Assembly (NCBI GenBank): GCA_021734135.1
Contig: JAIPJO010000001.1
Coordinates: 1-58,766, forward strand
DNA: 58,766 nucleotides
Direction of reading: 5' to 3'
DNA from: Patescibacteria group bacterium
Lineage (GTDB): Bacteria > Patescibacteriota > Patescibacteriia > Patescibacteriales > UBA12465
Below the pieces are notes generated by a model, which was not told the origin of the DNA, made no database searches, and saw only the letters and a list, made by a program, of their open reading frames with translations. This document shows, piece after piece, positions 5,048-43,742 of the stretch. The translations under genes were made by a program, and so were the position numbers. The number at the start of each line of letters is the position of its first letter. Position 1 is the first letter of the stretch.

Positions 5048-5076
5048 TTGACAAGTCTGTTTTTCTTTGCTATACT
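5048..5076 (+). promoter_or_regulatory. Sigma70-type promoter for the downstream small RNA
   Basis: TTGACA (5048-5053), 17-nt spacer ending in TGc, TATACT (5071-5076). Confidence 0.55.
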
Positions 5077-5083
5077 TTCTAGA

Positions 5084-5233
5084 GTTAGAAAATTGAAAAT
5101 TTATAAGACCACTTGAAGCGGGTATGGCACACGACAAGCATGGGGAGGTCATCATCTTTGGTTTCTTAGGCTCAGGCTTAAGGACACCGAGAGTTGATTT
5201 TCTTGCCTTGCCCGCTTCAGGTGGTCTTTTTTT
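5084..5233 (+). ncRNA. Unclassified structured small RNA (GC-rich rod; possible SRP-RNA-like element)
   Basis: Has its own consensus promoter. The core at 5106-5227 is about half G+C in a very AT-rich context. A 17-bp closing stem (agaccacttgaagcggg / cccgcttcaggtggtct) extends by about 7 more pairs and is followed by a T7 run. No ORF. No downstream gene on this strand. Confidence 0.55.
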
Positions 5234-22962: not shown

Positions 22963-23949
22963 ATGGATAATAAAAAGATAATTTTCTCAGGAGTTCAACC
23001 TAGTGGAAATATTCATTTAGGTAATTATTTAGGAGCTATAAAAAATTGGATTAAACTTCAGGACGAATATCAATGTCTTTTTTGTGTTGTTGATTATCAT
23101 GCAATTACTGTCAAACAAGATCCAAAAGAATTAAAAAAGAAAATTATTGAAATAGCAAAAATATATTTAGCTAGTGGTATTGATCCTAAAAAAAGCGTTA
23201 TCTTTCAGCAATCACAAATTAGTGAACACACTGAATTAACTTGGATGTTAAATTGTGTTAGCGCTAGAATGAGTGATTTAAATAAAATGACTCAATATAA
23301 AGATAAAGCAGGGGATAATGAGAATGTAAGTGTTGGTCTTTTTGACTATCCTGTTCTCATGGCTTCTGATATTCTACTCTATCAAACAGATTTAGTGCCA
23401 GTAGGTGAAGATCAAAAACAACATATTGAGCTAACGAGAGTCTTAGCTAAAAGATTTAATAATGAATACGGAAAAGTTTTTAAAATTCCTGAGGTAGTAA
23501 TTAAAAAAGAAGGGGCTAGAATAATGGGACTTGATGATGCTAGTAAGAAAATGAGTAAATCTGCTAGTTCAGAGTTTAATTACATTGCTTTATTAGATGA
23601 CTCTGACAGAGCTAAAAAGAAAATAATGAAAGCAGTTACAGACTCTGAAGGAGTTGTTAAGTATGATGTGAAGAATAAACCTGAAGTTTCTAACCTTTTA
23701 ACAGTCTATTCACTTCTTAGTGGTTATTCAGTGAAAGACTTAGAGGATAAATACAAGGGCAGTGGTTATGGTGATTTTAAAAAAGATTTAGCAGAATTAG
23801 TGGCACAGTTTTTAATTAGTTTTCAAGAGAAATACAACAATATCAAAGATGAAGATGTAGAGAAGATATTAGAAAAAGGAGCTAAGGAATTAAAGTCTGT
23901 TGCTAATACAACTTTGAATAATGCAAAAGAGAAGATTGGTTTAAATTAA
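22963..23949 (+). CDS. trpS: Tryptophanyl-tRNA synthetase
   Basis: 328 aa. SGVQPSGNIHLGNYLG (HIGH-type), KMSKS (SKKMSKS). Confidence 0.95.
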   Translation: MDNKKIIFSGVQPSGNIHLGNYLGAIKNWIKLQDEYQCLFCVVDYHAITVKQDPKELKKKIIEIAKIYLASGIDPKKSVIFQQSQISEHTELTWMLNCVSARMSDLNKMTQYKDKAGDNENVSVGLFDYPVLMASDILLYQTDLVPVGEDQKQHIELTRVLAKRFNNEYGKVFKIPEVVIKKEGARIMGLDDASKKMSKSASSEFNYIALLDDSDRAKKKIMKAVTDSEGVVKYDVKNKPEVSNLLTVYSLLSGYSVKDLEDKYKGSGYGDFKKDLAELVAQFLISFQEKYNNIKDEDVEKILEKGAKELKSVANTTLNNAKEKIGLN

Positions 23950-24009
23950 ATTTAGATTATAATTTAATTAAAATAAAGCATTAATTAAAAATAGAAATAT
24001 AGATAAAAC

Positions 24010-24036
24010 AAAAACAACCCTTAAAGGGTTGTTTTT
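24010..24036. terminator. Bidirectional terminator between trpS and the 16S rRNA gene
   Basis: aaaaacaaccctttaagggttgttttt: a perfect hairpin flanked by an A-run and a T-run. Confidence 0.65.
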
Positions 24037-24042
24037 GATTAT

Positions 24043-24089
24043 TTTAAATTTGGTAAAGTTTGATTTCTTGATCCAAGTAGGCATCAATC
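24043..24089 (-). other. 3' half of the 16S precursor processing stem
   Basis: ttgatccaagtaggcatcaatc (24068-24089) and ttttaaatttggt are complementary to 26592-26634 on the other side of the 16S gene. Confidence 0.6.
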
Positions 24090-24701
24090 ACTTACCTCTT
24101 GCGAGATAAGCCGACCTTAATTAATAATCATTGACTATTAATTAAATCTCCCTAGAAAGGAGGTGATCCATCCACAGCTTCCGCTACAGATGCCTTGTTA
24201 CGACTTCGTCCTTGTCACCAGTCTTACCTTCGGCCCTTAAAAAAGGGACTTCGGGTACTACCAGCTCCCCTGACGTGACGGGCGGTGAGTACAAGACCCG
24301 AGAACGTATTCACCGTAGTATAGCTGACCTACGATTACTAGCGATTCCAACTTCATGAGGTCGAATTTCAGACCTCAATCCGAACTGAGAGAAAGTTTAA
24401 GGGATTAGCTCCACCTTACGGTTTGGCAGCCCTTTGTCTTTCCCATTGTAGCACGTGTGTAGCCCAAGGTGTAAGAACCATGCTGATTTGACGTCATCCC
24501 ACCTTCCTCCCACTTAAAGCGGGCAGTCTCCCATGACACATAAAACATGGAAAAAGGGTTGCGCTCGTTTTCCGACTAAACGGTACATTTCACAACACGA
24601 GCTGACGGCAACCATGCAGCATCTGTTAGGCACCCTCGAAGGCTTCCCTGTTTCCAGGGCGTGCAGCCTAATGTCAAACCTTGGTGAGGTTCTTCGGTTA
24701 T

Positions 24702-24746
<45 letters not shown>

Positions 24747-25159
24747 TATTCCTTTGAGTTTTAAGCTTGCGCTCGTACTCCCCAGGCGGGATGCTTAACG
24801 GGTTACCTTAAATTAACAGCACTGAAAGGGTCGATACTTCCAATGCTTAGCATCCAGCGTTTACGGCGTGGACTACGAGGGTATCTAATCCTCTTCGCTC
24901 CCCACGCTTTCGTCCTTGAACGTCAGGCGCGTTCTAGCAAGCTGCCTTCGCATTTGGCGTTCCTGCTGATATTAACGGATTTAACCCCTACACCAGCAAT
25001 TCCGCTTGCCTCTACCGGCCTCTAGTCTATTCATCTCTCCCGCAGCCTCCAGGTTGAGCCTGAAGATTTAACAGGAGATGCAACAGACCGCCTACGGACC
25101 CTTTACGCCCAATAAATCCGGATAACGCTTGGGGCCCTCGTATTACCGCTGCTGCTGGC

Positions 25160-26055
25160 CAATTAACTAAATAATTGTTGTTGGACTATATCTTCATCCT
25201 TTTAAAGGATGCTCGGCGTGTTATAGCAGTGTTAATTTTCTTTTAATAAAGAAGTAATGCTATCTCTCCACTTAAGGATCAGTCTCTGAAGGGTTAATTA
25301 TAACGGAGGAATTTTATGATTGAAACATTCAAGTATATAAGGTTGGATTGTAGATAAAAATTTATTTATACCTTCTTTACCTATATATAATCTTGGATAT
25401 CTCTTTCCTCTGCATAATGGATTTTGCACTGTTGAAAAAATTTGAAAATTTTTCTTAAGAGCAATACTTAATAAGCTTGCTTCTCTTAACGAAAAGCAAT
25501 TTACACTTAAACTAAAAGCAAAATGATCTTTTGGTCTCCAATCTAATGTTCCGTCATCCATATACCAAATGGCTAAGGATAAAGGATCATTTAATAACTC
25601 TGAAATAATTGAGGGAATTATTTTTTTATCTTTGGGATAAAAAATATTTCTTAGCTCCGTTAATTCAGTAGTATATCTTGTTCCAAAAAACCATTGACTA
25701 CCGTCTTTACGTTTATTGGGAGGGCTTTTACATAAATTATTTAATTCATTGTAAAGCCAAAATACATATGTTTTGTATTTTTGACATTGCTTTATTTGAA
25801 TTCTAGTGCCTTTATAGCCGTTGAATTCTAAATGCGCATCGCCAAGAATACCACCAATAATAATAGCTTTTTGCTTTTTGGTAAGTTTAAATTCCATTAT
25901 ACTATTATAACAACTTCCCTGCTGATTGTCTAACTACTAAGCAACAGATTATTGCAGTTAGAGTTTCCAGCATATAAGCCAAGTATTCATCTTAATGTTA
26001 CCACTAAGAGTCGCGCTTCGTTGTAATACAAGATTGTTGCTAACTTTTTATGTTC
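25160..26055 (-). mobile_element. Group I intron in the 16S rRNA at E. coli position 516/517, carrying a homing endonuclease gene
   Basis: The exons rejoin to ...CUAACCUCGU|GCCAGCAGCAGCGGUAAUAC. The 5' exon ends in U and the intron ends in G. Core R-like element CUUCAGAGACUGA (25281-25293) and S element AAGAUAUAGUCC (25183-25194). Candidate guide sequence GCGA pairs with exon UCGU. Confidence 0.85.
25298..25897 (-). CDS. LAGLIDADG homing endonuclease (double-motif), intron-encoded
   Basis: 199 aa. Motif 1 IIIGGILGDAHL and motif 2 LAIWYMDDGTL. The ORF lies wholly inside the 16S insertion, and its stop is 4 nt upstream of the R element. Confidence 0.85.
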   Translation of the reverse strand: MEFKLTKKQKAIIIGGILGDAHLEFNGYKGTRIQIKQCQKYKTYVFWLYNELNNLCKSPPNKRKDGSQWFFGTRYTTELTELRNIFYPKDKKIIPSIISELLNDPLSLAIWYMDDGTLDWRPKDHFAFSLSVNCFSLREASLLSIALKKNFQIFSTVQNPLCRGKRYPRLYIGKEGINKFLSTIQPYILECFNHKIPPL

Positions 26056-26488
26056 ACGAGGTTAGCAGCCCCTTATTCATTAGGTACAGTCATTAGTTCT
26101 TCCCTAATAAAAGCAGTTTACACTCCGAAAAGCGTCTTCCTGCACGCGACGTCGCTCCTTCAGCCTTGCGGCCATTGAGGAATATTCGTGACTGCAGCCT
26201 CCCGTAGGAGTCTGGGCAGTGTCTCAGTCCCAGTGAGGCGGGTCATGCTCTCACACCCGCTATCCGTCATTGCCTTGGTAAGCTATTACCTTACCAACAA
26301 GCTGATAGACCATAGACCCCTCTTGAAGCACCGGAGTTTTAAATAAAGAACTTAAGTTCTTTATTACTATCGGGTATTACTCTCGCTTTCGCAAGGTTAT
26401 CCCCGTCTTCAAGGTAGGTTATCAATGTGTTACTCTCCCGTTTGCCAAGCTAGTAAACTAGCTTTCGACTTGCATGCCTTAGCCACGT

Positions 26489-26523
<35 letters not shown>

Positions 26524-30542: not shown

Positions 30543-33500
30543 ATGACTACAAAAAATACAGACAAAAATACAGAGCAAGAACCTCAGGATGAGGGGATTA
30601 AAAAAAATGATGAAAATGAGTTAACTGCTTATGGTTTAATTAAAAACCAGTCTTTAGTAGATGAAATGAGTCAATCATATCTTGATTATGCTATGAGTGT
30701 CATTGTTTCTCGTGCCTTACCGGATGTGAGAGATGGTTTAAAACCAGTTCACAGACGTATATTATATGCGATGTGGAGCATTGGTTTAAAATCAACTGCT
30801 AAGTTTAGAAAATCAGCCACTGTAGTTGGTGAGGTTTTAGGTAAATATCATCCTCATGGAGATAGTGCTGTATATGATTCAATGGTTAGAATGGCGCAAG
30901 ATTTTTCTATGCGTTATCAATTGGTTAATGGACAGGGTAATTTTGGTTCAATGGATGGAGATAGCCCGGCAGCTATGAGATACTGTGTTACTGGTGATAC
31001 TTTAATTTTAAGTAATAAAGGAATTTTACCTATTGAAAAGATTTCAAATAAAATAGAAGAGAAAATTAATTTAAATATTTTAAATTATCAAGGTAAAGTT
31101 AAAAAAGCAGATAGGTTTTTTAATTCAGGTAAACATAAAATTAGACAGGTTGTTACTGAGCAGGGTTATCAAATTAAAGGATCTTTGAATCATCCTTTAA
31201 TGGTTTGGTCTCAAGATGAGTTTAGTAGACCTGCTATTTCTTGGAAAATTTTGGCAGATCTTAGAGAAGAAGACACAGTTTTGATTAATAGAAATTTTTC
31301 TCTTTTTTCTAAAATTAATACTAATTTAGAAAAATATTACTTACCTTTAAAAAAGAAACAAACTAAAGTAGTTTTACCTAAAACTATGAATAAGGACTTA
31401 GCTTTTTTGCTAGGAGCTTTAGTTTCTGAGGGTAGTTATCATAAAGGGCAAATATTATTTTGTAATTCTGATAAAGTTTTTTATGATAAAGTAAAAAATA
31501 TAATTTTAAAACAATTTAAAGGAGTTAAATTGTATGAAAGAGATATACAAGGTGGTTGTCGTGAATTAAGCTTATACCATCAGCAAGCGGTTAATTTTTT
31601 AGAGAGCATAGGGTTATCATTTAAGCGTTCTGATAAAAAAGAAATACCTTTTACAGTTCTTGAGTCTAAGAAAGAAATAATCTCATCATTTATACAAGCC
31701 TTATTTGAAGGTGATGGTTCTGTAATTTACAAAAAAGATAAAAGACATGATGGTGAGTCTATTGAACTTACTTATAATAGTAAAAGTGAGAAATTAATTG
31801 AGCAATTAAAAACAACTTTACTTGGTTTTCAAATTATAACGACTAATCCTTATCAAGATAAAAGAAATTCTTGTTATAAATTAATTATTTCTGGAGTTGA
31901 AAGTATTAATAATTTTTATAAGCAAATTAATTTTTATTCTCAGCGTAAAAAAGAGGTTTTAACTAATATTGAAAATATTAATAATACTCGTTTAAGTAAA
32001 ACTGATTATATACCTTATATTAGTGAGTATTTAAGAAAAAATTATAATCAAAGTTTTTTAAAGAAAAATAATTTTGATCGTTACTCTAAATTAGAAAAAA
32101 ACTATTCACAATTAGTAAAAATATTAAAGCCAGCTGATAAAGAAATAATAGATTGGTTATTAAAACATAAGTTTTTCTTTAATAAAATAAAAACTATTAC
32201 AGATCTTAAAAACAAAGAAACAGTTTATTCTGTAAGGGTAGATAGTAATTGCCATTCATTTATTGCCAACGGTTTTGTTAATCATAATACAGAAGCTAAG
32301 CTACAAAATATTTCTGATGAACTTTTAATTGATATAGAAAAGAAAACAGTTGATTTTCGTCCTAACTTTGATGGTTCTCATGATGAACCTAGTGTTTTAC
32401 CAGCTAAACTACCTAACCTACTTTTAAACGGTACTATGGGTATTGCTGTAGGTATGGCTACAAATATTCCTCCTCATAATTTACATGAATTATCACAAGC
32501 TATAATACACTTAATTGAAAATCCTGAAGCTAGCATTGAAGATCTAACTGCTTTTGTTAAAGGACCAGATTTTCCTACTGGTGGAATTATTTATAATCAA
32601 AAAGATATTGCTCAGGCCTATGCTACTGGTAAAGGTGGAATTGTGGTAAGGGGTAAGGCGGAAATTGTTGAGAATAAAGCTAATGATTTTAAAATTATTA
32701 TCACAGAAATTCCTTATCAAGTAAATAAAGCTAATTTAGTAACGAAAATTGCTGAATTAGTTAAAGATAAAAAGATTGATAGTATTAAAGATTTAAGAGA
32801 TGAATCTGATAAAGATGGTGTTAGAGTAGTTATTGATCTTAAAAAAGATGCTTATCCTAAAAAGGTGTTAAACACTTTATATAAAAATACACAACTTCAA
32901 GAAACTTTTCATGTTAATATGTTAGCTTTAATAGATGGCTTGCAACCAAAAGTGCTTACATTAAAAATGATACTTGAAGAATATATTAAGCATCGTTTGG
33001 AAGTAGTTAGAAGAAGAACTCAGTTTGATTTGGATAAAGCTAAGGATAGAGCCCATATCTTAGAAGGTCTTGTTATTGCTTTAAAAAATATTGATGAAGT
33101 TATTAAAACTATTAAAGCTTCAAAAGATAAAGAAGTAGCGAAGTTAAGTTTAATTAAAAAGTTTAAACTTTCAGAGCGTCAAGCAGTAGCCATTCTAGAA
33201 ATGAAATTGCAGAATTTAGCAAATCTGGAAGGAAAGAAGATAGAAGATGAATTAAAAGAAAAACAAAAATTAATTAAAGAATTAGAAAGTATTTTAGGGT
33301 CTAAAACTAAGATGAGAAATATTATTAAACAAGAAGTGGTAGACCTTGAAAAGAAATATGGAGACGAAAGAAGAACTAAAGTTGTAAGTAGAGGAATAAA
33401 AGACTTTAATATTGAAGATTTAGTACCAAATGAAGAAACCATGATCATGATGACTAAAGATGGTTATATTAAAAGACTTGATCCTAGTAATTTTAAAGTT

Positions 33501-34376
33501 CAGGCTAGAGGTGGAAAAGGTGTTATTGGTTTAAGCACTAAAGAAGAGGATTTGGTACAATTTATGTTTACCACTAATACTCATAGTGACCTCCTTTTCT
33601 TTACTACAAAAGGTAGAGTTTTTCAATTAAAATCATATGAAATTCCCCAGGCCTCTAGAACTGCTAAAGGTACAGCTATAGTTAATTTTTTACAACTCAT
33701 GAGCAATGAGCAAGTTACTTCAATATTACCTTTAGATAAAATTTCTAATCAAAAATATCTATTCTTTACTACTGAAAAAGGTATAGTTAAAAAAGTTTCT
33801 TTAGATTCCTTTGCTAATGTTAGAAGGTCAGGACTTATAGCTATTAAGATTAAAAATGAAGATAGACTTATTTGGGCTAAACCAACTAGTGGTGACGATG
33901 AAGTAATATTGATTACAGCTAATGGACAAGCTATTAGATTTAAAGAAAAAGATGTTAGAGAAATGGGAAGATCTGCAGCCGGCGTTTATGGAATGCGCTT
34001 AAAGAAGGATGATAAAGTTATTGGCATGGGAGTAGCTAATCAAAAAGCAATTAAAGAAAAAGATTATCAAGTAATGACTATTATGGCTAATGGTTTTGGT
34101 AAAAGAACAGCTTTTGATCTGTATAAAATTCAAAAAAGAGGTGGCTCTGGCATTAAAACTGCTAAAGTTACAAACAAGACTGGTCTTATAGTCAATGCTT
34201 ATTTAATGGATTACAAGATTATGAAAGAAAAAGATATTGTTGCCATTTCAGCTAAAGGTCAAGTAATTCGTTTATCCTTTGCTTCTATTAATAAAACAGG
34301 TAGAGATACGCAAGGAGTGAAACTTATGAGATTAAAAAATGATAATGATAGTGTTGCTGGGGTAACTTGGGTATAA
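30543..34376 (+). CDS. gyrA: DNA gyrase subunit A, interrupted by an intein
   Basis: 1277 aa. Extein motifs: [46 protein letters not shown]|...|TEAKL, and C-terminal beta-pinwheel repeats. About 842 aa remain after removing the intein. Confidence 0.95.
30984..32288 (+). mobile_element. GyrA intein (435 aa) with LAGLIDADG homing-endonuclease domain
   Basis: Starts with Cys ([10 protein letters not shown]) directly after the active-site Tyr. Block B SLNHPL. LAGLIDADG motifs [14 protein letters not shown] and [12 protein letters not shown]. Ends ...GFVNHN, followed by Thr (+1). Confidence 0.9.
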
Positions 34377-40756: not shown

Positions 40757-40784
40757 TATTTAATTGATAATAAAATATATAACT

Positions 40785-43742
40785 ATGAAAGTAGATTTTT
40801 CTCATTTAAATAAAGAACAAAGACAAGCAATAGAACATGAAAATGGTCCTTTGCTTTTAGTGGCTGGAGCTGGTACTGGTAAAACATCAGTGCTTATTAG
40901 TAGGATGATTTATTTAATGAATGAGAAAAAAGTTAATACTGAAGAAATATTACTTTTAACCTTTACGGAAAAAGCAGCAGCTGAAATGGAAGAAAGAGCT
41001 TTAGAAGCTTTACCTTATGGTTATTTTGATTTGTGGATTAGTACTTTTCATAGTTTTTGCGAAAGAGTTCTTAGAGATCATGGTTTAGAGATTGGTTTAC
41101 CAATAGATTTTGAATTGTTAACTCAAACACAGCAATGGATTTTTATTTATAATAATTTAAATAAATTTGAGCTCGATTATTATAAGCCACTTGGTAATTC
41201 AACTAAGTTCATTCAAGAGTTAATTAAACACTTTTCAAGATTAAAAGATGAAGAGATTTCTCCACAAAACTATCTTGATTATGCTGAAAGTTTAGAACTT
41301 AATAAGGATAATAGTTTAAACAATGAGGAGGCTAAAGAACAAGAACAAGAAATAGCACGTTATAAAGAGTTAGCTAATGCATATTATACTTATAATCAAT
41401 TACTTCTTGATAATTCTTATTTAGATTTTGGAGATTTAATTACTTATACTTTAAAACTTTTTAAAGAAAGACCTCATATACTTAATAAATATCAAAATAA
41501 GTTTAAGCAAGTAATGGTTGATGAGTTTCAAGACACTAATTGGGCTCAATATGAATTAATCAAATTACTTATTAAGTCTCACCAAAACCTTACTGTAGTG
41601 GGAGATGATGATCAAAGTATATATCGTTTTCGTGGTTCTTCGATTTTTAATATTATGCAGTTTAAAGATGATTTTCCTACAGCTAAACAAATAGTTTTAA
41701 CTAAGAACTATCGTTCAGGACAAAAAATACTAGATAAAGCTTATGAACTTGTTAAACATAATAATCCTAATCGTTTAGAAGAAAAAATTAATGTTAACAA
41801 AGAATTAAAGGCGCAAAAACCAATAGATGCAAAAGTAGAACATTGGCATTTGCAAAATGAAGAGTCAGAAACTACTTTTGTTAGAGAAAAAATAGAAACT
41901 ATATATAAAACTAATAAAAACAGTAAATGGTCTGACTTTGCTATCTTAGTTAGAGCTAATGATGCAGCGGACAAGTTTGTTAAAGAATTAAATCGTCATG
42001 GCATTCCTAATCAATTTGTTTCTTTAAAAGGTTTGTATTTTAAGCCTTTAATATTAAATGCTATAGCATACTTTAAACTTTTAGATAATTATCATGAATC
42101 TTCAGCTTTGTTTAGAGTGTTAAACTTTGATTATTTTTCTTTACCATATAAAGATATTTTAGAATTAAATAAATTAGCTAGAAGAAAGACCTGGTCATTA
42201 TATGAAGCTTTAGAAAATATTCATATTTTAAATGATTTAGATAGTGAGTCATATAAAAAAATTAATGAACTTCTTAGTTTAATTAAGAAGCATAGTGAAA
42301 TGGCTAAAAAGGAAAATCCTAGTAAGATATTTTTAGAATATGTAAAAGCTTTTGCAATTACTAAAAAATTAGATCAAGATAGGGACAAGGAAAAATTTTC
42401 TTGGTTGAATCAGTTTTATAAGAAAATAAAAGAATTTGAAAGTGCTGATAAAGAAGCTAAATTAAAAGATTTTGTTAACTATTTAAATTTAGAACTTGAA
42501 GCTGGAGAAAGTGGTTCTTTGTTTTTAGAATTTGAAGATCCTGAAGTAGTTAAAATAATGACAGTACATTCTGCTAAGGGTTTAGAATTTAATTATGTTT
42601 TTGTTTGTAATTTGGTTGATAAACGTTTTCCTACTATTTCTAGAACAGATAAAATAACAATTCCGGATGATTTAATTAAAGAGAAAGTTGAATCAGATAA
42701 AGATTTTCACGTAGAAGAGGAAAGAAGATTATTTTATGTAGCTATTACTAGAGCTAAGGAAAGTCTTTATTTAACCAGCGCTAAAGATTATGGTGGTAAG
42801 TTAGAAAAAAAGCCCTCACTTTTTCTTGAGGAAATGAATTTAAATGCTAAAGAAAAATTTAGTGCTGATTATCAAGCTTTAAATGAATTGGAAAAAGATT
42901 TATACAAGGAAGAAGCAAAAAGTTTAAGCAAGACAAACAAAAGTCAACTCAGTTTACCTAACAAATTTTCTTTTTCACAATTAGAGTCATACAGCAAATG
43001 TCCTTGGCAGTATCGTTATGCTTTTATACTTAAAGTTCCTGCTCCTGAAAAAGCTAGTCTATCTTTTGGTAGATCCTTACATAACACTTTATATCAATTT
43101 ATGTACCCATTGTTAGAAATAGGCCAAGCTCAAACTAGTTTATTTGCAGAAACTAAAAAAAGAAAAGAGGAGATTACAAGTCAGATAAATTTAGATAGAT
43201 TAATGGATTTATATAATGATTACTGGCAAGAAGGAGGTTATGAAAGCAAAAAAGAAAAAGAAGCGTATTATAAAAAGGGTAAAGAATCATTAATTAATTT
43301 CTATAATAATTTATTAGAAGAAAAAAATGTAAGACCAGTGATGTTGGAGAAAAATTTTGTTTTGAAAGTTGGTCAAGATTCAATTAAAGGTGCTATTGAT
43401 AGAGTGGATAAATTAGAAGATGGCACAGTGGAAGTAATCGATTATAAAACAGGTAGAGTTAAAGATAAGTTGGATACTAAAGATAAAAGACAATTAATGA
43501 TATATCAACTAGCACTGGAAAACGTTTTACATCTTAAAGTATCAAAATTAAGTTATTATTTTTTAGACAAAGAAGGTCACAAACTTTCTTTTTCAGCTAC
43601 AGATAAACAGTTAGAAAAATTACAAGAACAATTACAAGAAGAAATAGAGCAAATTAAATCAATGAATTTCGCCCCCACCCCTAGCCCTCAAAAATGTTCT
43701 TATTGTGATTTTAATAGTATTTGTGAGTTTAGAAAATTTTAG
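40785..43742 (+). CDS. UvrD/PcrA-type SF1 helicase fused to a C-terminal PD-(D/E)xK nuclease with a Cas4/AddB-like four-Cys cluster
   Basis: Walker A GAGTGKTS, DEFQDT, VGDDDQSIYRFRG, TVHSAKGLEF. C-terminus has SKCPWQYRY ... IDRVD ... DYKTG ... CSYCDFNSIC. I prefer the ATG at 40785 over the TTG at 40764. Confidence 0.8.
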   Translation: MKVDFSHLNKEQRQAIEHENGPLLLVAGAGTGKTSVLISRMIYLMNEKKVNTEEILLLTFTEKAAAEMEERALEALPYGYFDLWISTFHSFCERVLRDHGLEIGLPIDFELLTQTQQWIFIYNNLNKFELDYYKPLGNSTKFIQELIKHFSRLKDEEISPQNYLDYAESLELNKDNSLNNEEAKEQEQEIARYKELANAYYTYNQLLLDNSYLDFGDLITYTLKLFKERPHILNKYQNKFKQVMVDEFQDTNWAQYELIKLLIKSHQNLTVVGDDDQSIYRFRGSSIFNIMQFKDDFPTAKQIVLTKNYRSGQKILDKAYELVKHNNPNRLEEKINVNKELKAQKPIDAKVEHWHLQNEESETTFVREKIETIYKTNKNSKWSDFAILVRANDAADKFVKELNRHGIPNQFVSLKGLYFKPLILNAIAYFKLLDNYHESSALFRVLNFDYFSLPYKDILELNKLARRKTWSLYEALENIHILNDLDSESYKKINELLSLIKKHSEMAKKENPSKIFLEYVKAFAITKKLDQDRDKEKFSWLNQFYKKIKEFESADKEAKLKDFVNYLNLELEAGESGSLFLEFEDPEVVKIMTVHSAKGLEFNYVFVCNLVDKRFPTISRTDKITIPDDLIKEKVESDKDFHVEEERRLFYVAITRAKESLYLTSAKDYGGKLEKKPSLFLEEMNLNAKEKFSADYQALNELEKDLYKEEAKSLSKTNKSQLSLPNKFSFSQLESYSKCPWQYRYAFILKVPAPEKASLSFGRSLHNTLYQFMYPLLEIGQAQTSLFAETKKRKEEITSQINLDRLMDLYNDYWQEGGYESKKEKEAYYKKGKESLINFYNNLLEEKNVRPVMLEKNFVLKVGQDSIKGAIDRVDKLEDGTVEVIDYKTGRVKDKLDTKDKRQLMIYQLALENVLHLKVSKLSYYFLDKEGHKLSFSATDKQLEKLQEQLQEEIEQIKSMNFAPTPSPQKCSYCDFNSICEFRKF

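Follow-up and report, generated by a model that had tools for sequence, protein, structure and literature searches.

A group I intron with a predicted LAGLIDADG endonuclease gene at site S516 of a Patescibacteria 16S rRNA gene

What kind of element is an 896-nt insertion in the decoding centre of a bacterial 16S rRNA gene, and how could a ribosome be built from a gene that carries it? The question is raised by a 58,766-nt stretch of contig JAIPJO010000001.1 (assembly GCA_021734135.1) from a Patescibacteria group bacterium, and we use the term "window" to refer to the whole of this stretch. A first reading of the letters (the original prediction) had proposed a group I intron with a LAGLIDADG homing endonuclease gene at site S516. 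We hold with high confidence that the insertion is a mobile group I intron with an IA-type periphery, located at 516/517 of the contig's only 16S gene, which would splice and would home via its LAGLIDADG enzyme. On sequence grounds, the host is a Parcubacteria-group bacterium, within the Candidate Phyla Radiation (CPR)/Patescibacteria. The window has a G+C content of 29%, and the tryptophanyl-tRNA synthetase (TrpRS) encoded next to the 16S gene shares, in a protein search, 86% identity with a protein labelled "Parcubacteria group bacterium", followed among the named matches by Pacebacteria, Falkowbacteria and Patescibacteria.

The interrupted 16S rRNA gene

The gene consists of three parts:

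26056-26521, minus strand: 16S rRNA 5' exon (E. coli ~9-516, last base U516), from the Rfam SSU_rRNA_bacteria match (404.9 bits) and the sequence read
25160-26055, minus strand: group I intron of 896 nt at S516, from its fold, covariation and the breakpoints against the intron-less allele L172
24156-25159, minus strand: 16S rRNA 3' exon, from G517 to the anti-Shine-Dalgarno sequence, from Rfam (907.9 bits) and the 3' end as read

Rfam finds one bacterial small-subunit (SSU) rRNA gene on the minus strand (26521-24156), split into two pieces: 26521-25996 corresponds to model positions 9-546, and 25321-24156 extends up to model position 1533. This gene is the sole 16S on the contig and is full length. 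The insertion (26055-25160) lies in the universally conserved 530 loop, exactly between the bases that we take to be U516 and G517 in E. coli numbering, anchored on the 515F primer site. Read along the minus strand, ...GCUGCUAACCUCGU is followed by the insertion GAACAU...UUAAUUG and then by GCCAGCAGCAGCGGUAAUAC; in a longer reading, ...GGGGCUGCUAACCUCGU gives way to GAACAUAAAAAGUUAGC at the first junction, and UUUAGUUAAUUG to GCCAGCAGCAGCGGUAAUACGAGG at the second. The last base of the 5' exon is U and the last base of the insertion is G. The joined exons amount to 1470 nt with an intact 3' end (...GGAUCACCUCCUUU).

The boundaries can also be read from a relative. Syntenic loci of close relatives, to which we give L numbers as to all related loci, were fetched via the TrpRS gene adjoining the 16S gene. 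One of them, L172, has a 16S without any interruption, 99.25% identical along the full 1470 nt, and the alignment breaks exactly between 25159 and 26056. The intron-less sequence across the site is GGGGCUGCUAACCUCGUGCCAGCAGCAGCGGUAAUACGAGG, and L172 reads across the junction with identical letters. Thus the limits of the insertion, its position at S516, the U and G at its borders and the recovery of the 530 loop on its removal all agree with the original prediction; its exon length of about 1478 nt is replaced by our count of 1470 nt.

These data also bear on the extremely improbable case that the arrangement arose by chimeric assembly or that this copy of the 16S is dead. While metagenome misassembly is frequent at rRNA genes and mobile elements, and two related contigs (L160 and L161) terminate within the intron, identical junctions turn up in independently made assemblies of several samples (L160-L162, L163-L168). 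Both exons are complete (405 and 908 bits), the anti-Shine-Dalgarno end is retained, the identity to an uninterrupted allele with the same neighbouring genes is 99.25%, and there is no second 16S on the contig, all of which speaks against a chimera or a dead copy.

Upstream of the gene there is a candidate promoter for the pre-16S transcript, TTGACA-17-TAATAT, at 26753-26725. Downstream, TrpRS lies on the opposite strand and begins ~200 nt past the 16S 3' end (window 22963-24156). The 16S gene is thus followed by TrpRS instead of a 23S gene, which indicates that the rRNA genes are unlinked; the same 16S-TrpRS arrangement recurs in relatives L169-L175.

The ribozyme fold

The insertion is a complete group I fold, from P1 to P9, with IA-type P7.1 and P7.2 hairpins. 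Its elements are given below with the fraction of cells that are paired and the number of pairs with compensatory changes. Both values come from an alignment of 32 distinct S516 introns, which was anchored on the window sequence and from which the loop carrying the open reading frame (ORF) was trimmed; pairs were counted for the structure as drawn on the window.

26059-26055 with 26011-26015, minus strand: P1, exon UCGU plus intron G1 with internal guide sequence CGCGA (96.8% paired, 3 of 5 pairs compensatory)
25990-26009, minus strand: P2 hairpin, UCUUAGUG/CAUUAAGA (90% paired, 8 of 8 compensatory; also in the minimum free energy fold)
25978-25983, minus strand: P3 5' strand, CUUGGC (covariation)
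25212-25217, minus strand: P3 3' strand, GCCGAG (P3 90% paired, 4 of 6 compensatory)
25920-25972, minus strand: P4-P5 domain, including a tip hairpin (partial Rfam match, 28.5 bits)
25972-25967 with 25925-25920, minus strand: P4, UGCUGG/UCAGCA (100% paired, 1 of 6 compensatory)
25962-25929, minus strand: P5, UCUAACU/AGUUAGA (71% paired, 7 of 7 compensatory)
25904-25914, minus strand: P6 5' strand, GUUGUUAUAAU, which also holds TGnTATAAT (covariation)
25293-25304, minus strand: P6 3' strand, GUUAUAAUUAAC, which contains the ORF stop codon (P6 85% paired, 10 of 11 compensatory)
25279-25293, minus strand: R element, CCCUUCAGAGACUGA (invariant in the 32 sequences)
25286-25281 with 25187-25183, minus strand: P7, G(A)GACU with AGUCC (100% paired, invariant)
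25279-25266 and 25263-25223, minus strand: P7.1 and P7.2, peripheral hairpins between P7 and the P3 3' strand (covariation)
25195-25211, minus strand: P8 hairpin, CAUCCUU/AAGGAUG (70% paired, 6 of 7 compensatory; also in the minimum free energy fold)
25183-25194, minus strand: S element, AAGAUAUAGUCC, made up of J8/7 and the P7 3' strand AGUCC of the guanosine-binding helix (invariant; Rfam consensus)
25160-25177, minus strand: P9-like 3' terminal hairpin, CAAUUA/UAAUUG, ending in omega-G 25160 (from the sequence)

Over the whole structure, 81.4% of cells are in standard pairs. Sliding the 3' partners by 1-3 columns gives 33-44%, and none of 500 shuffles matches what is observed. Folded on energy alone, the ORF-trimmed window intron independently yields P2, P3, P4, P5, P6, P7.2 and P8.

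P1 places U516·G at the splice site, and this U·G pair is present in all 32 introns. Its neighbours covary: the pair at position -3 is CG in 23 introns and UA in 9, and the pair at position +1 is GC in 24 and AU in 7. A boundary moved by one base, with the exon ending in G517, was rejected for the window; U516·G is invariant. As a separate observation, the terminal G is replaced by A or C in about 10 of the 32 introns (L001, L002, L005, L006, L007, L020, L084, L086, L088 and L093). For the introns ending in C, a one-base shift of both boundaries would restore the terminal G and would take the splice site off the U·G pair.

In the core, P2 is capped by a GUAA tetraloop (26001-25998), P6 (25914-25904 with 25304-25293) closes the loop that holds the ORF, and the S element agrees letter for letter with the Rfam Intron_gpI consensus. 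The original prediction had picked out the R and S elements and a P1 between GCGA and exon UCGU. All three are found in the fold, R and S being invariant throughout the family and P1 having its U516·G pair and covarying neighbours in the alignment.

The periphery between P7 and the P3 3' strand is equally well defined. In P7.2, 98% of cells are paired and compensatory changes affect 4 of 6 pairs, and the P7.1 variants (UCC/GGA, GUCC/GGAC, GAUUC/GAAUC and GGUC/GACC) are compensatory by eye. Hairpins P7.1 and P7.2 at this location mark subgroup IA (PMC3984707), and the periphery is therefore IA-type; we assign no finer subgroup (IA1, IA2 or IA3). Four relatives (L008, L065, L011 and L018) lack both hairpins. 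An alternative P8 in the 3' half of Rfam's own alignment (AUCCUU.../...AAGGAU) was dropped, as the family supports P7.1, P7.2, the P3 3' strand and the local P8. The hairpin at the tip of P5 is without family support (45% paired).

Several observations weigh against a functional group I intron that encodes its own endonuclease. No match to Intron_gpI (RF00028) is found in the window at the gathering score of 50 bits. The P9-like terminal hairpin is not conserved (37% paired), P1 is limited to 4-5 bp, and the P10 that the window intron can form with the 3' exon has at most 2 bp (it has 4 bp in relatives with UGGC ahead of the guide sequence). Finally, no Shine-Dalgarno sequence is found ahead of the ORF.

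The low Rfam score reflects the architecture of the element, since the 600-nt ORF in the P6 loop splits the ribozyme. A permissive scan of 25100-26120 gives two partial Intron_gpI matches that flank the ORF, one in the P4-P6 region (28.5 bits, E 4.5e-5) and one in the P7-P9 region (24.7 bits, E 6e-4). Natural ORF-less relatives served as a proxy for an ORF-deleted window intron. The ORF-less L174, whose ribozyme parts are 98.6% identical to nt 1-150 and 754-896 of the window intron, matches Intron_gpI model positions 1-253 with 61.1 bits (E 2e-13), above the gathering score. Two further introns also exceed this score, namely L065, likewise ORF-less and at S516 (75.6 bits), and L019 (52.9 bits). 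The Rfam comparison that was proposed with the original prediction is therefore negative for the window itself (28.5 and 24.7 against 50 bits) and positive for its near-identical ORF-less copy. Together with the covarying fold, this score identifies the insertion as a group I intron, and the outcome named at the outset as damaging, neither a model match nor a fold, is not what is seen.

The same evidence makes it very improbable that the insertion is left unspliced, either as an expansion segment of the mature 16S or as an intervening sequence that RNase III excises to leave a fragmented 16S. Intervening sequences do exist in bacterial rRNA, and PMC11270868 proposes them for some CPR insertions; the site, however, is the universally conserved 530 loop and not a variable helix tip, and the fold does not close in the long terminal stem expected of an RNase III substrate. 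What it does have is a full covarying group I core, with the U·G pair and the terminal G exactly at the exon borders, and an ORF-less twin that matches the Rfam group I model.

The short P1 and P10 and the unconserved 3' hairpin imply that unaided self-splicing in vitro could be weak, and splicing in vitro might require a protein helper. A rival reading is that the intron is group I by descent and no longer self-splicing, and that it either needs its LAGLIDADG protein as a maturase, needs a host factor, or is spliced inefficiently. We consider this unlikely. The purifying selection on the ORF (see below) would fit a maturase role as well, and the bI3 maturase is among the structural neighbours of the encoded protein, though far below I-SceI; against this, the core helices and the guanosine-binding P7 are all intact and covarying, the catalytic aspartates of the endonuclease are conserved, and ORF-less copies persist in sister populations (L174/L175, L065), so that the RNA is evidently removable without the intron's own protein.

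One feature of the fold lies outside the standard set of helices. It is a second exon-intron pairing, which we call Px, between two strands identified by complementarity and covariation:

26061-26067, minus strand: Px 5' exon strand, UGCUAAC (E. coli 505-511)
26038-26044, minus strand: Px intron strand, GUUAGCA (intron nt 12-18, in the loop of P1)

Pairings of this type, 7-10 bp in length, are found in ten relatives, all with a P1 of 4-5 bp, and have no counterpart in relatives with a 6-bp P1. The intron strand tracks four other exon variants (GCUCCUAAC with GUUAGGAG, GUCACAAAA with UUUUGUGAU, GUGGCUAA with UUAGUCAC, and GUUGCUAAA with UUUAGUAGC). When each sequence is shuffled, p is <=0.004 in 8 of the 10 relatives. 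When eight sequences are aligned without forcing, the paired fraction is 95.8% of cells, compared with 15-56% in slid controls; compensatory changes are seen in 5 of 9 pairs, and none of 500 shuffles reaches the observed value. Because Px crosses P1, the two would form either a pseudoknot or alternative structures. We read Px as an additional site at which the intron binds and retains the 5' exon, and as such it would be a functional analogue of the group II EBS2-IBS2 pairing (exon-binding site 2 with intron-binding site 2), outside the canonical group I model. Searching the literature for any such additional exon pairing in group I introns returned nothing relevant, which is weak evidence of absence; a covarying Px upstream of a very short P1 may be a new finding.

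The endonuclease gene and the evidence for intron mobility

The endonuclease gene, in the P6 loop, and the promoter-like site ahead of it are as follows:

25298-25897, minus strand: homing endonuclease gene, 199 aa, from Pfam, an I-SceI alignment, a structure model and the ratio of nonsynonymous to synonymous substitution rates (dN/dS)
25904-25932, minus strand: promoter-like site within the intron, TAGACA, 17 nt and TG-n-TATAAT, ending 6 nt before the ATG (11 of 12 matches plus an extended -10)

The ORF matches Pfam LAGLIDADG_2 (PF03161) with 118.9 bits (E 2.9e-34; cut-off 25), and its residues 11-197 align to I-SceI with ~27% identity (E 1.7e-11). This alignment covers both I-SceI motifs in one chain, as ILGDA (D20) and YMDDG (D114/D115), and the three aspartates are invariant in 29 homologues. 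An AlphaFold model of the protein has a predicted local distance difference test (pLDDT) value of 95.3 and a predicted template modelling (pTM) score of 0.91; its best structural matches are I-SceI and I-WcaI, with template modelling (TM) scores of 0.83-0.84 and E ~1e-14. Compared with three relatives, dN/dS is 0.14-0.17, which indicates purifying selection on the protein. Judged from alignment and model, the ORF is predicted to encode a monomeric LAGLIDADG_2 enzyme that has two motifs and belongs to the I-SceI family, in keeping with the double-motif, 199-aa product first read from the letters (Pfam E 2.9e-34, I-SceI alignment, TM 0.83). An exact-sequence look-up of the window endonuclease returned no match. 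The P6 3' strand includes the stop codon, which is 6 nt ahead of CUUCAGAG, or 3-4 nt ahead of CCCUUCAG; the original prediction had given 4 nt between ORF and R element.

As to expression, 22 of 34 relatives have a TATAAT-like hexamer whose end is exactly 6 nt from the endonuclease start codon, and in 3 others the spacing is 7 nt. This placement of the -10 box, which in the window precedes the ATG at 25897, suggests that the endonuclease mRNA is leaderless. The hexamer doubles as the P6 5' strand, and the promoter and stem explanations of its conservation are not separated. A conserved TATAAT box before the endonuclease start may be a new finding. The combined proposal, that Px evolved as a second exon-binding site and that the endonuclease is made from a leaderless mRNA started at the TGnTATAAT in the P6 stem, is a tentative one, and we are inclined to doubt it as a whole. 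If confirmed, Px and the -10 box would only refine the group I model.

How widespread the element is can be judged from a protein search with the ORF and from a genome scan. The search gives 212 homologues, with 48-94% identity among the 120 matches listed. The scan, of one genome per bacterial species, gives 79 loci, of which 21 (L001, L002, L004-L020, L024 and L065) have an insertion at exactly the S516 site; these are almost all labelled Patescibacteria. Two further loci, L003 and L027, are cut by a contig end. Further copies came from metagenomes and contig look-ups (the single-protein metagenome scan did not return the 94%-identical relative), and the S516 family is present in at least 20 Patescibacteria species genomes as well as many metagenome contigs. 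The original prediction had called the find striking, a description that does not hold for an intron/endonuclease pair of this distribution. The Q element AAUCAGCAGGGAAG and the R element CCCYUCAGAGACU are common to all S516 copies. The distance between Q and R is 595-672 nt in most copies and 11-25 nt in L065, L020 and L024.

Two side observations concern these relatives. Patescibacteria-type 16S or endonuclease contigs occur in metagenome-assembled genomes labelled Nanoarchaeota or Gammaproteobacteria (L015, L019, L025, L034 and L048), and these odd labels are probably binning or labelling errors. In the 16S region of L020, positions 5056-5137 match group-II-D1D4-1 (46.7 bits), consistent with reports of group II insertions around position 1400 in CPR 16S genes.

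The close relatives provide three states of one site. Sister populations have 16S genes that are 98-99% identical, and yet S516 is empty (L172 and L170), occupied by intron and ORF, or occupied by an intron without ORF. L174 and L175 belong to the last type, with the same intron at the same site, 314 nt long and lacking the ORF. In L160-L162 the intron is present and includes an ORF with 94% identity to that of the window, and the flanks are 100% identical to those of L174/L175; the sole difference between the two sets is a 603-nt ORF cassette that replaces 20 nt. In several more distant relatives the ORF is decayed, with a longest frame of 35-143 aa, and yet tblastn aligns it over nearly its full length. 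Together, the allele states and decayed ORFs trace the classic cycle in which an intron invades, its endonuclease decays and the element is lost. L170, while lacking the S516 intron, carries a different insertion near exon position 1037, 850 nt long and with another LAGLIDADG_2 gene. L174 has a 284-nt ORF-less insertion near the same position, and the window has neither of the two.

Fold, gene and alleles suggest the following life cycle. After transcription of the pre-16S, the intron would fold into the standard ribozyme, and a free guanosine bound in P7 would attack at the U516·G pair presented by the short P1. The released 5' exon would be kept in place by P1 and probably also by the 7-bp Px, until the terminal G (25160) moves into the G site and exon ligation re-creates the 530 loop. 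The endonuclease, which is probably translated from a leaderless mRNA started at its own -10 box, would be expected to cut intron-less 16S genes at 516/517 (GCUAACCUCGU/GCCAGCAGCAGCGG), and repair of the cut allele would copy the intron in; homology and the population data are what point to this homing step. The cycle presupposes some means of DNA exchange between cells.

Two other matches in the window may be mentioned here. A second homing element is present, an intein that interrupts GyrA (1277 aa, 30543-34376, plus strand) at ~31005-32290, with Pfam matches to Intein_splicing (residues 155-582) and LAGLIDADG_3 (380-463). The Rfam family n00280 ("C. difficile sRNA included into helicase gene") matches 42687-42784 (plus strand) at 66.0, compared with a gathering score of 65.2. 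This match falls inside a UvrD/PD-(D/E)XK helicase-nuclease ORF (40764-43742), and it most likely reflects conserved coding sequence.

Comparison with known introns

The td intron of phage T4, which encodes I-TevI, is an IA intron with P7.1 and P7.2, an ORF looped out from P6 and its own promoter inside the intron. It differs from the window intron in its host gene, which codes for a protein, and in its enzyme, which is of the GIY-YIG type; we know of no second exon pairing in it. The omega intron of the yeast mitochondrial large-subunit (LSU) rRNA gene, which encodes I-SceI, is likewise a group I intron of an rRNA gene, and its enzyme is of the same family with the same monomeric two-motif fold. 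Here the differences are ~27% protein identity, the LSU gene, another site and another host compartment; the comparison covered the endonucleases. Giant sulfur bacteria, of a different phylum from the window host, also have 16S rRNA introns, which Salman et al. 2012 are said to have located at sites other than S516. Their study is cited in PMC4853749 and in PMC11270868.

Introns at the identical SSU site are found in eukaryotic nuclei (Nae.S516 of Naegleria and the myxomycete S516 introns; PMC1464144, PMC9223047). They have IC1 ribozymes, some of them in twin-ribozyme arrangements, and His-Cys box endonucleases (PMC9223047), and they share a life cycle of intron gain, endonuclease-gene decay and loss. 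The window intron, with its IA-type P7.1 and P7.2 and a LAGLIDADG_2 gene in P6, is neither IC1 nor of the His-Cys box type. Thus, of the parallel with eukaryotic S516 introns that the original prediction had drawn, the insertion site stands, and the ribozyme and the endonuclease do not agree. The shared site looks like the result of independent colonisation.

Brown et al. 2015 reportedly described group I introns with LAGLIDADG genes in CPR rRNA genes. For the window itself, several consequences follow. It offers a clean, fully annotated case of CPR bacteria tolerating mobile introns within the decoding centre of their single 16S gene, and the empty, ORF-containing and ORF-less alleles in near-identical populations form a natural system in uncultured bacteria for the study of homing and endonuclease-gene turnover. 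The enzyme, a compact I-SceI relative, should recognise the universal 515-530 rDNA sequence. Since the intron splits the 515F primer site, organisms of this kind would be missed or mis-sized in amplicon surveys.

The closest known systems are the CPR introns of Tsurumaki et al. 2024 (PMC11270868), and the figures that follow are those of that paper. Insertions are found in 48% of CPR 16S genes, and 35% of the insertions are classed as group I, which agrees with the initial remark that interrupted 16S genes are known in CPR bacteria; the phenomenon is also mentioned in PMC8172020 and PMC11809585. Within CPR 16S genes, 43 group I insertions contain LAGLIDADG_2 ORFs of ~210 aa, and ORF-containing and ORF-less versions with near-identical ribozyme parts occur at the same conserved sites (PMC11270868). 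The text of that paper gives no coordinates for its sites 16IS4-7 by which S516 could be confirmed as one of them, and the only enzyme it characterises, I-ShaI, is a homodimeric LAGLIDADG_1 protein from a 23S intron, whereas the enzyme of the window is a LAGLIDADG_2 protein encoded in a 16S gene. The host clade and the design are the same, and, on this evidence, nothing essential differs. The window intron, which leaves current understanding unchanged, is an ordinary member of a known and widespread family of CPR introns.

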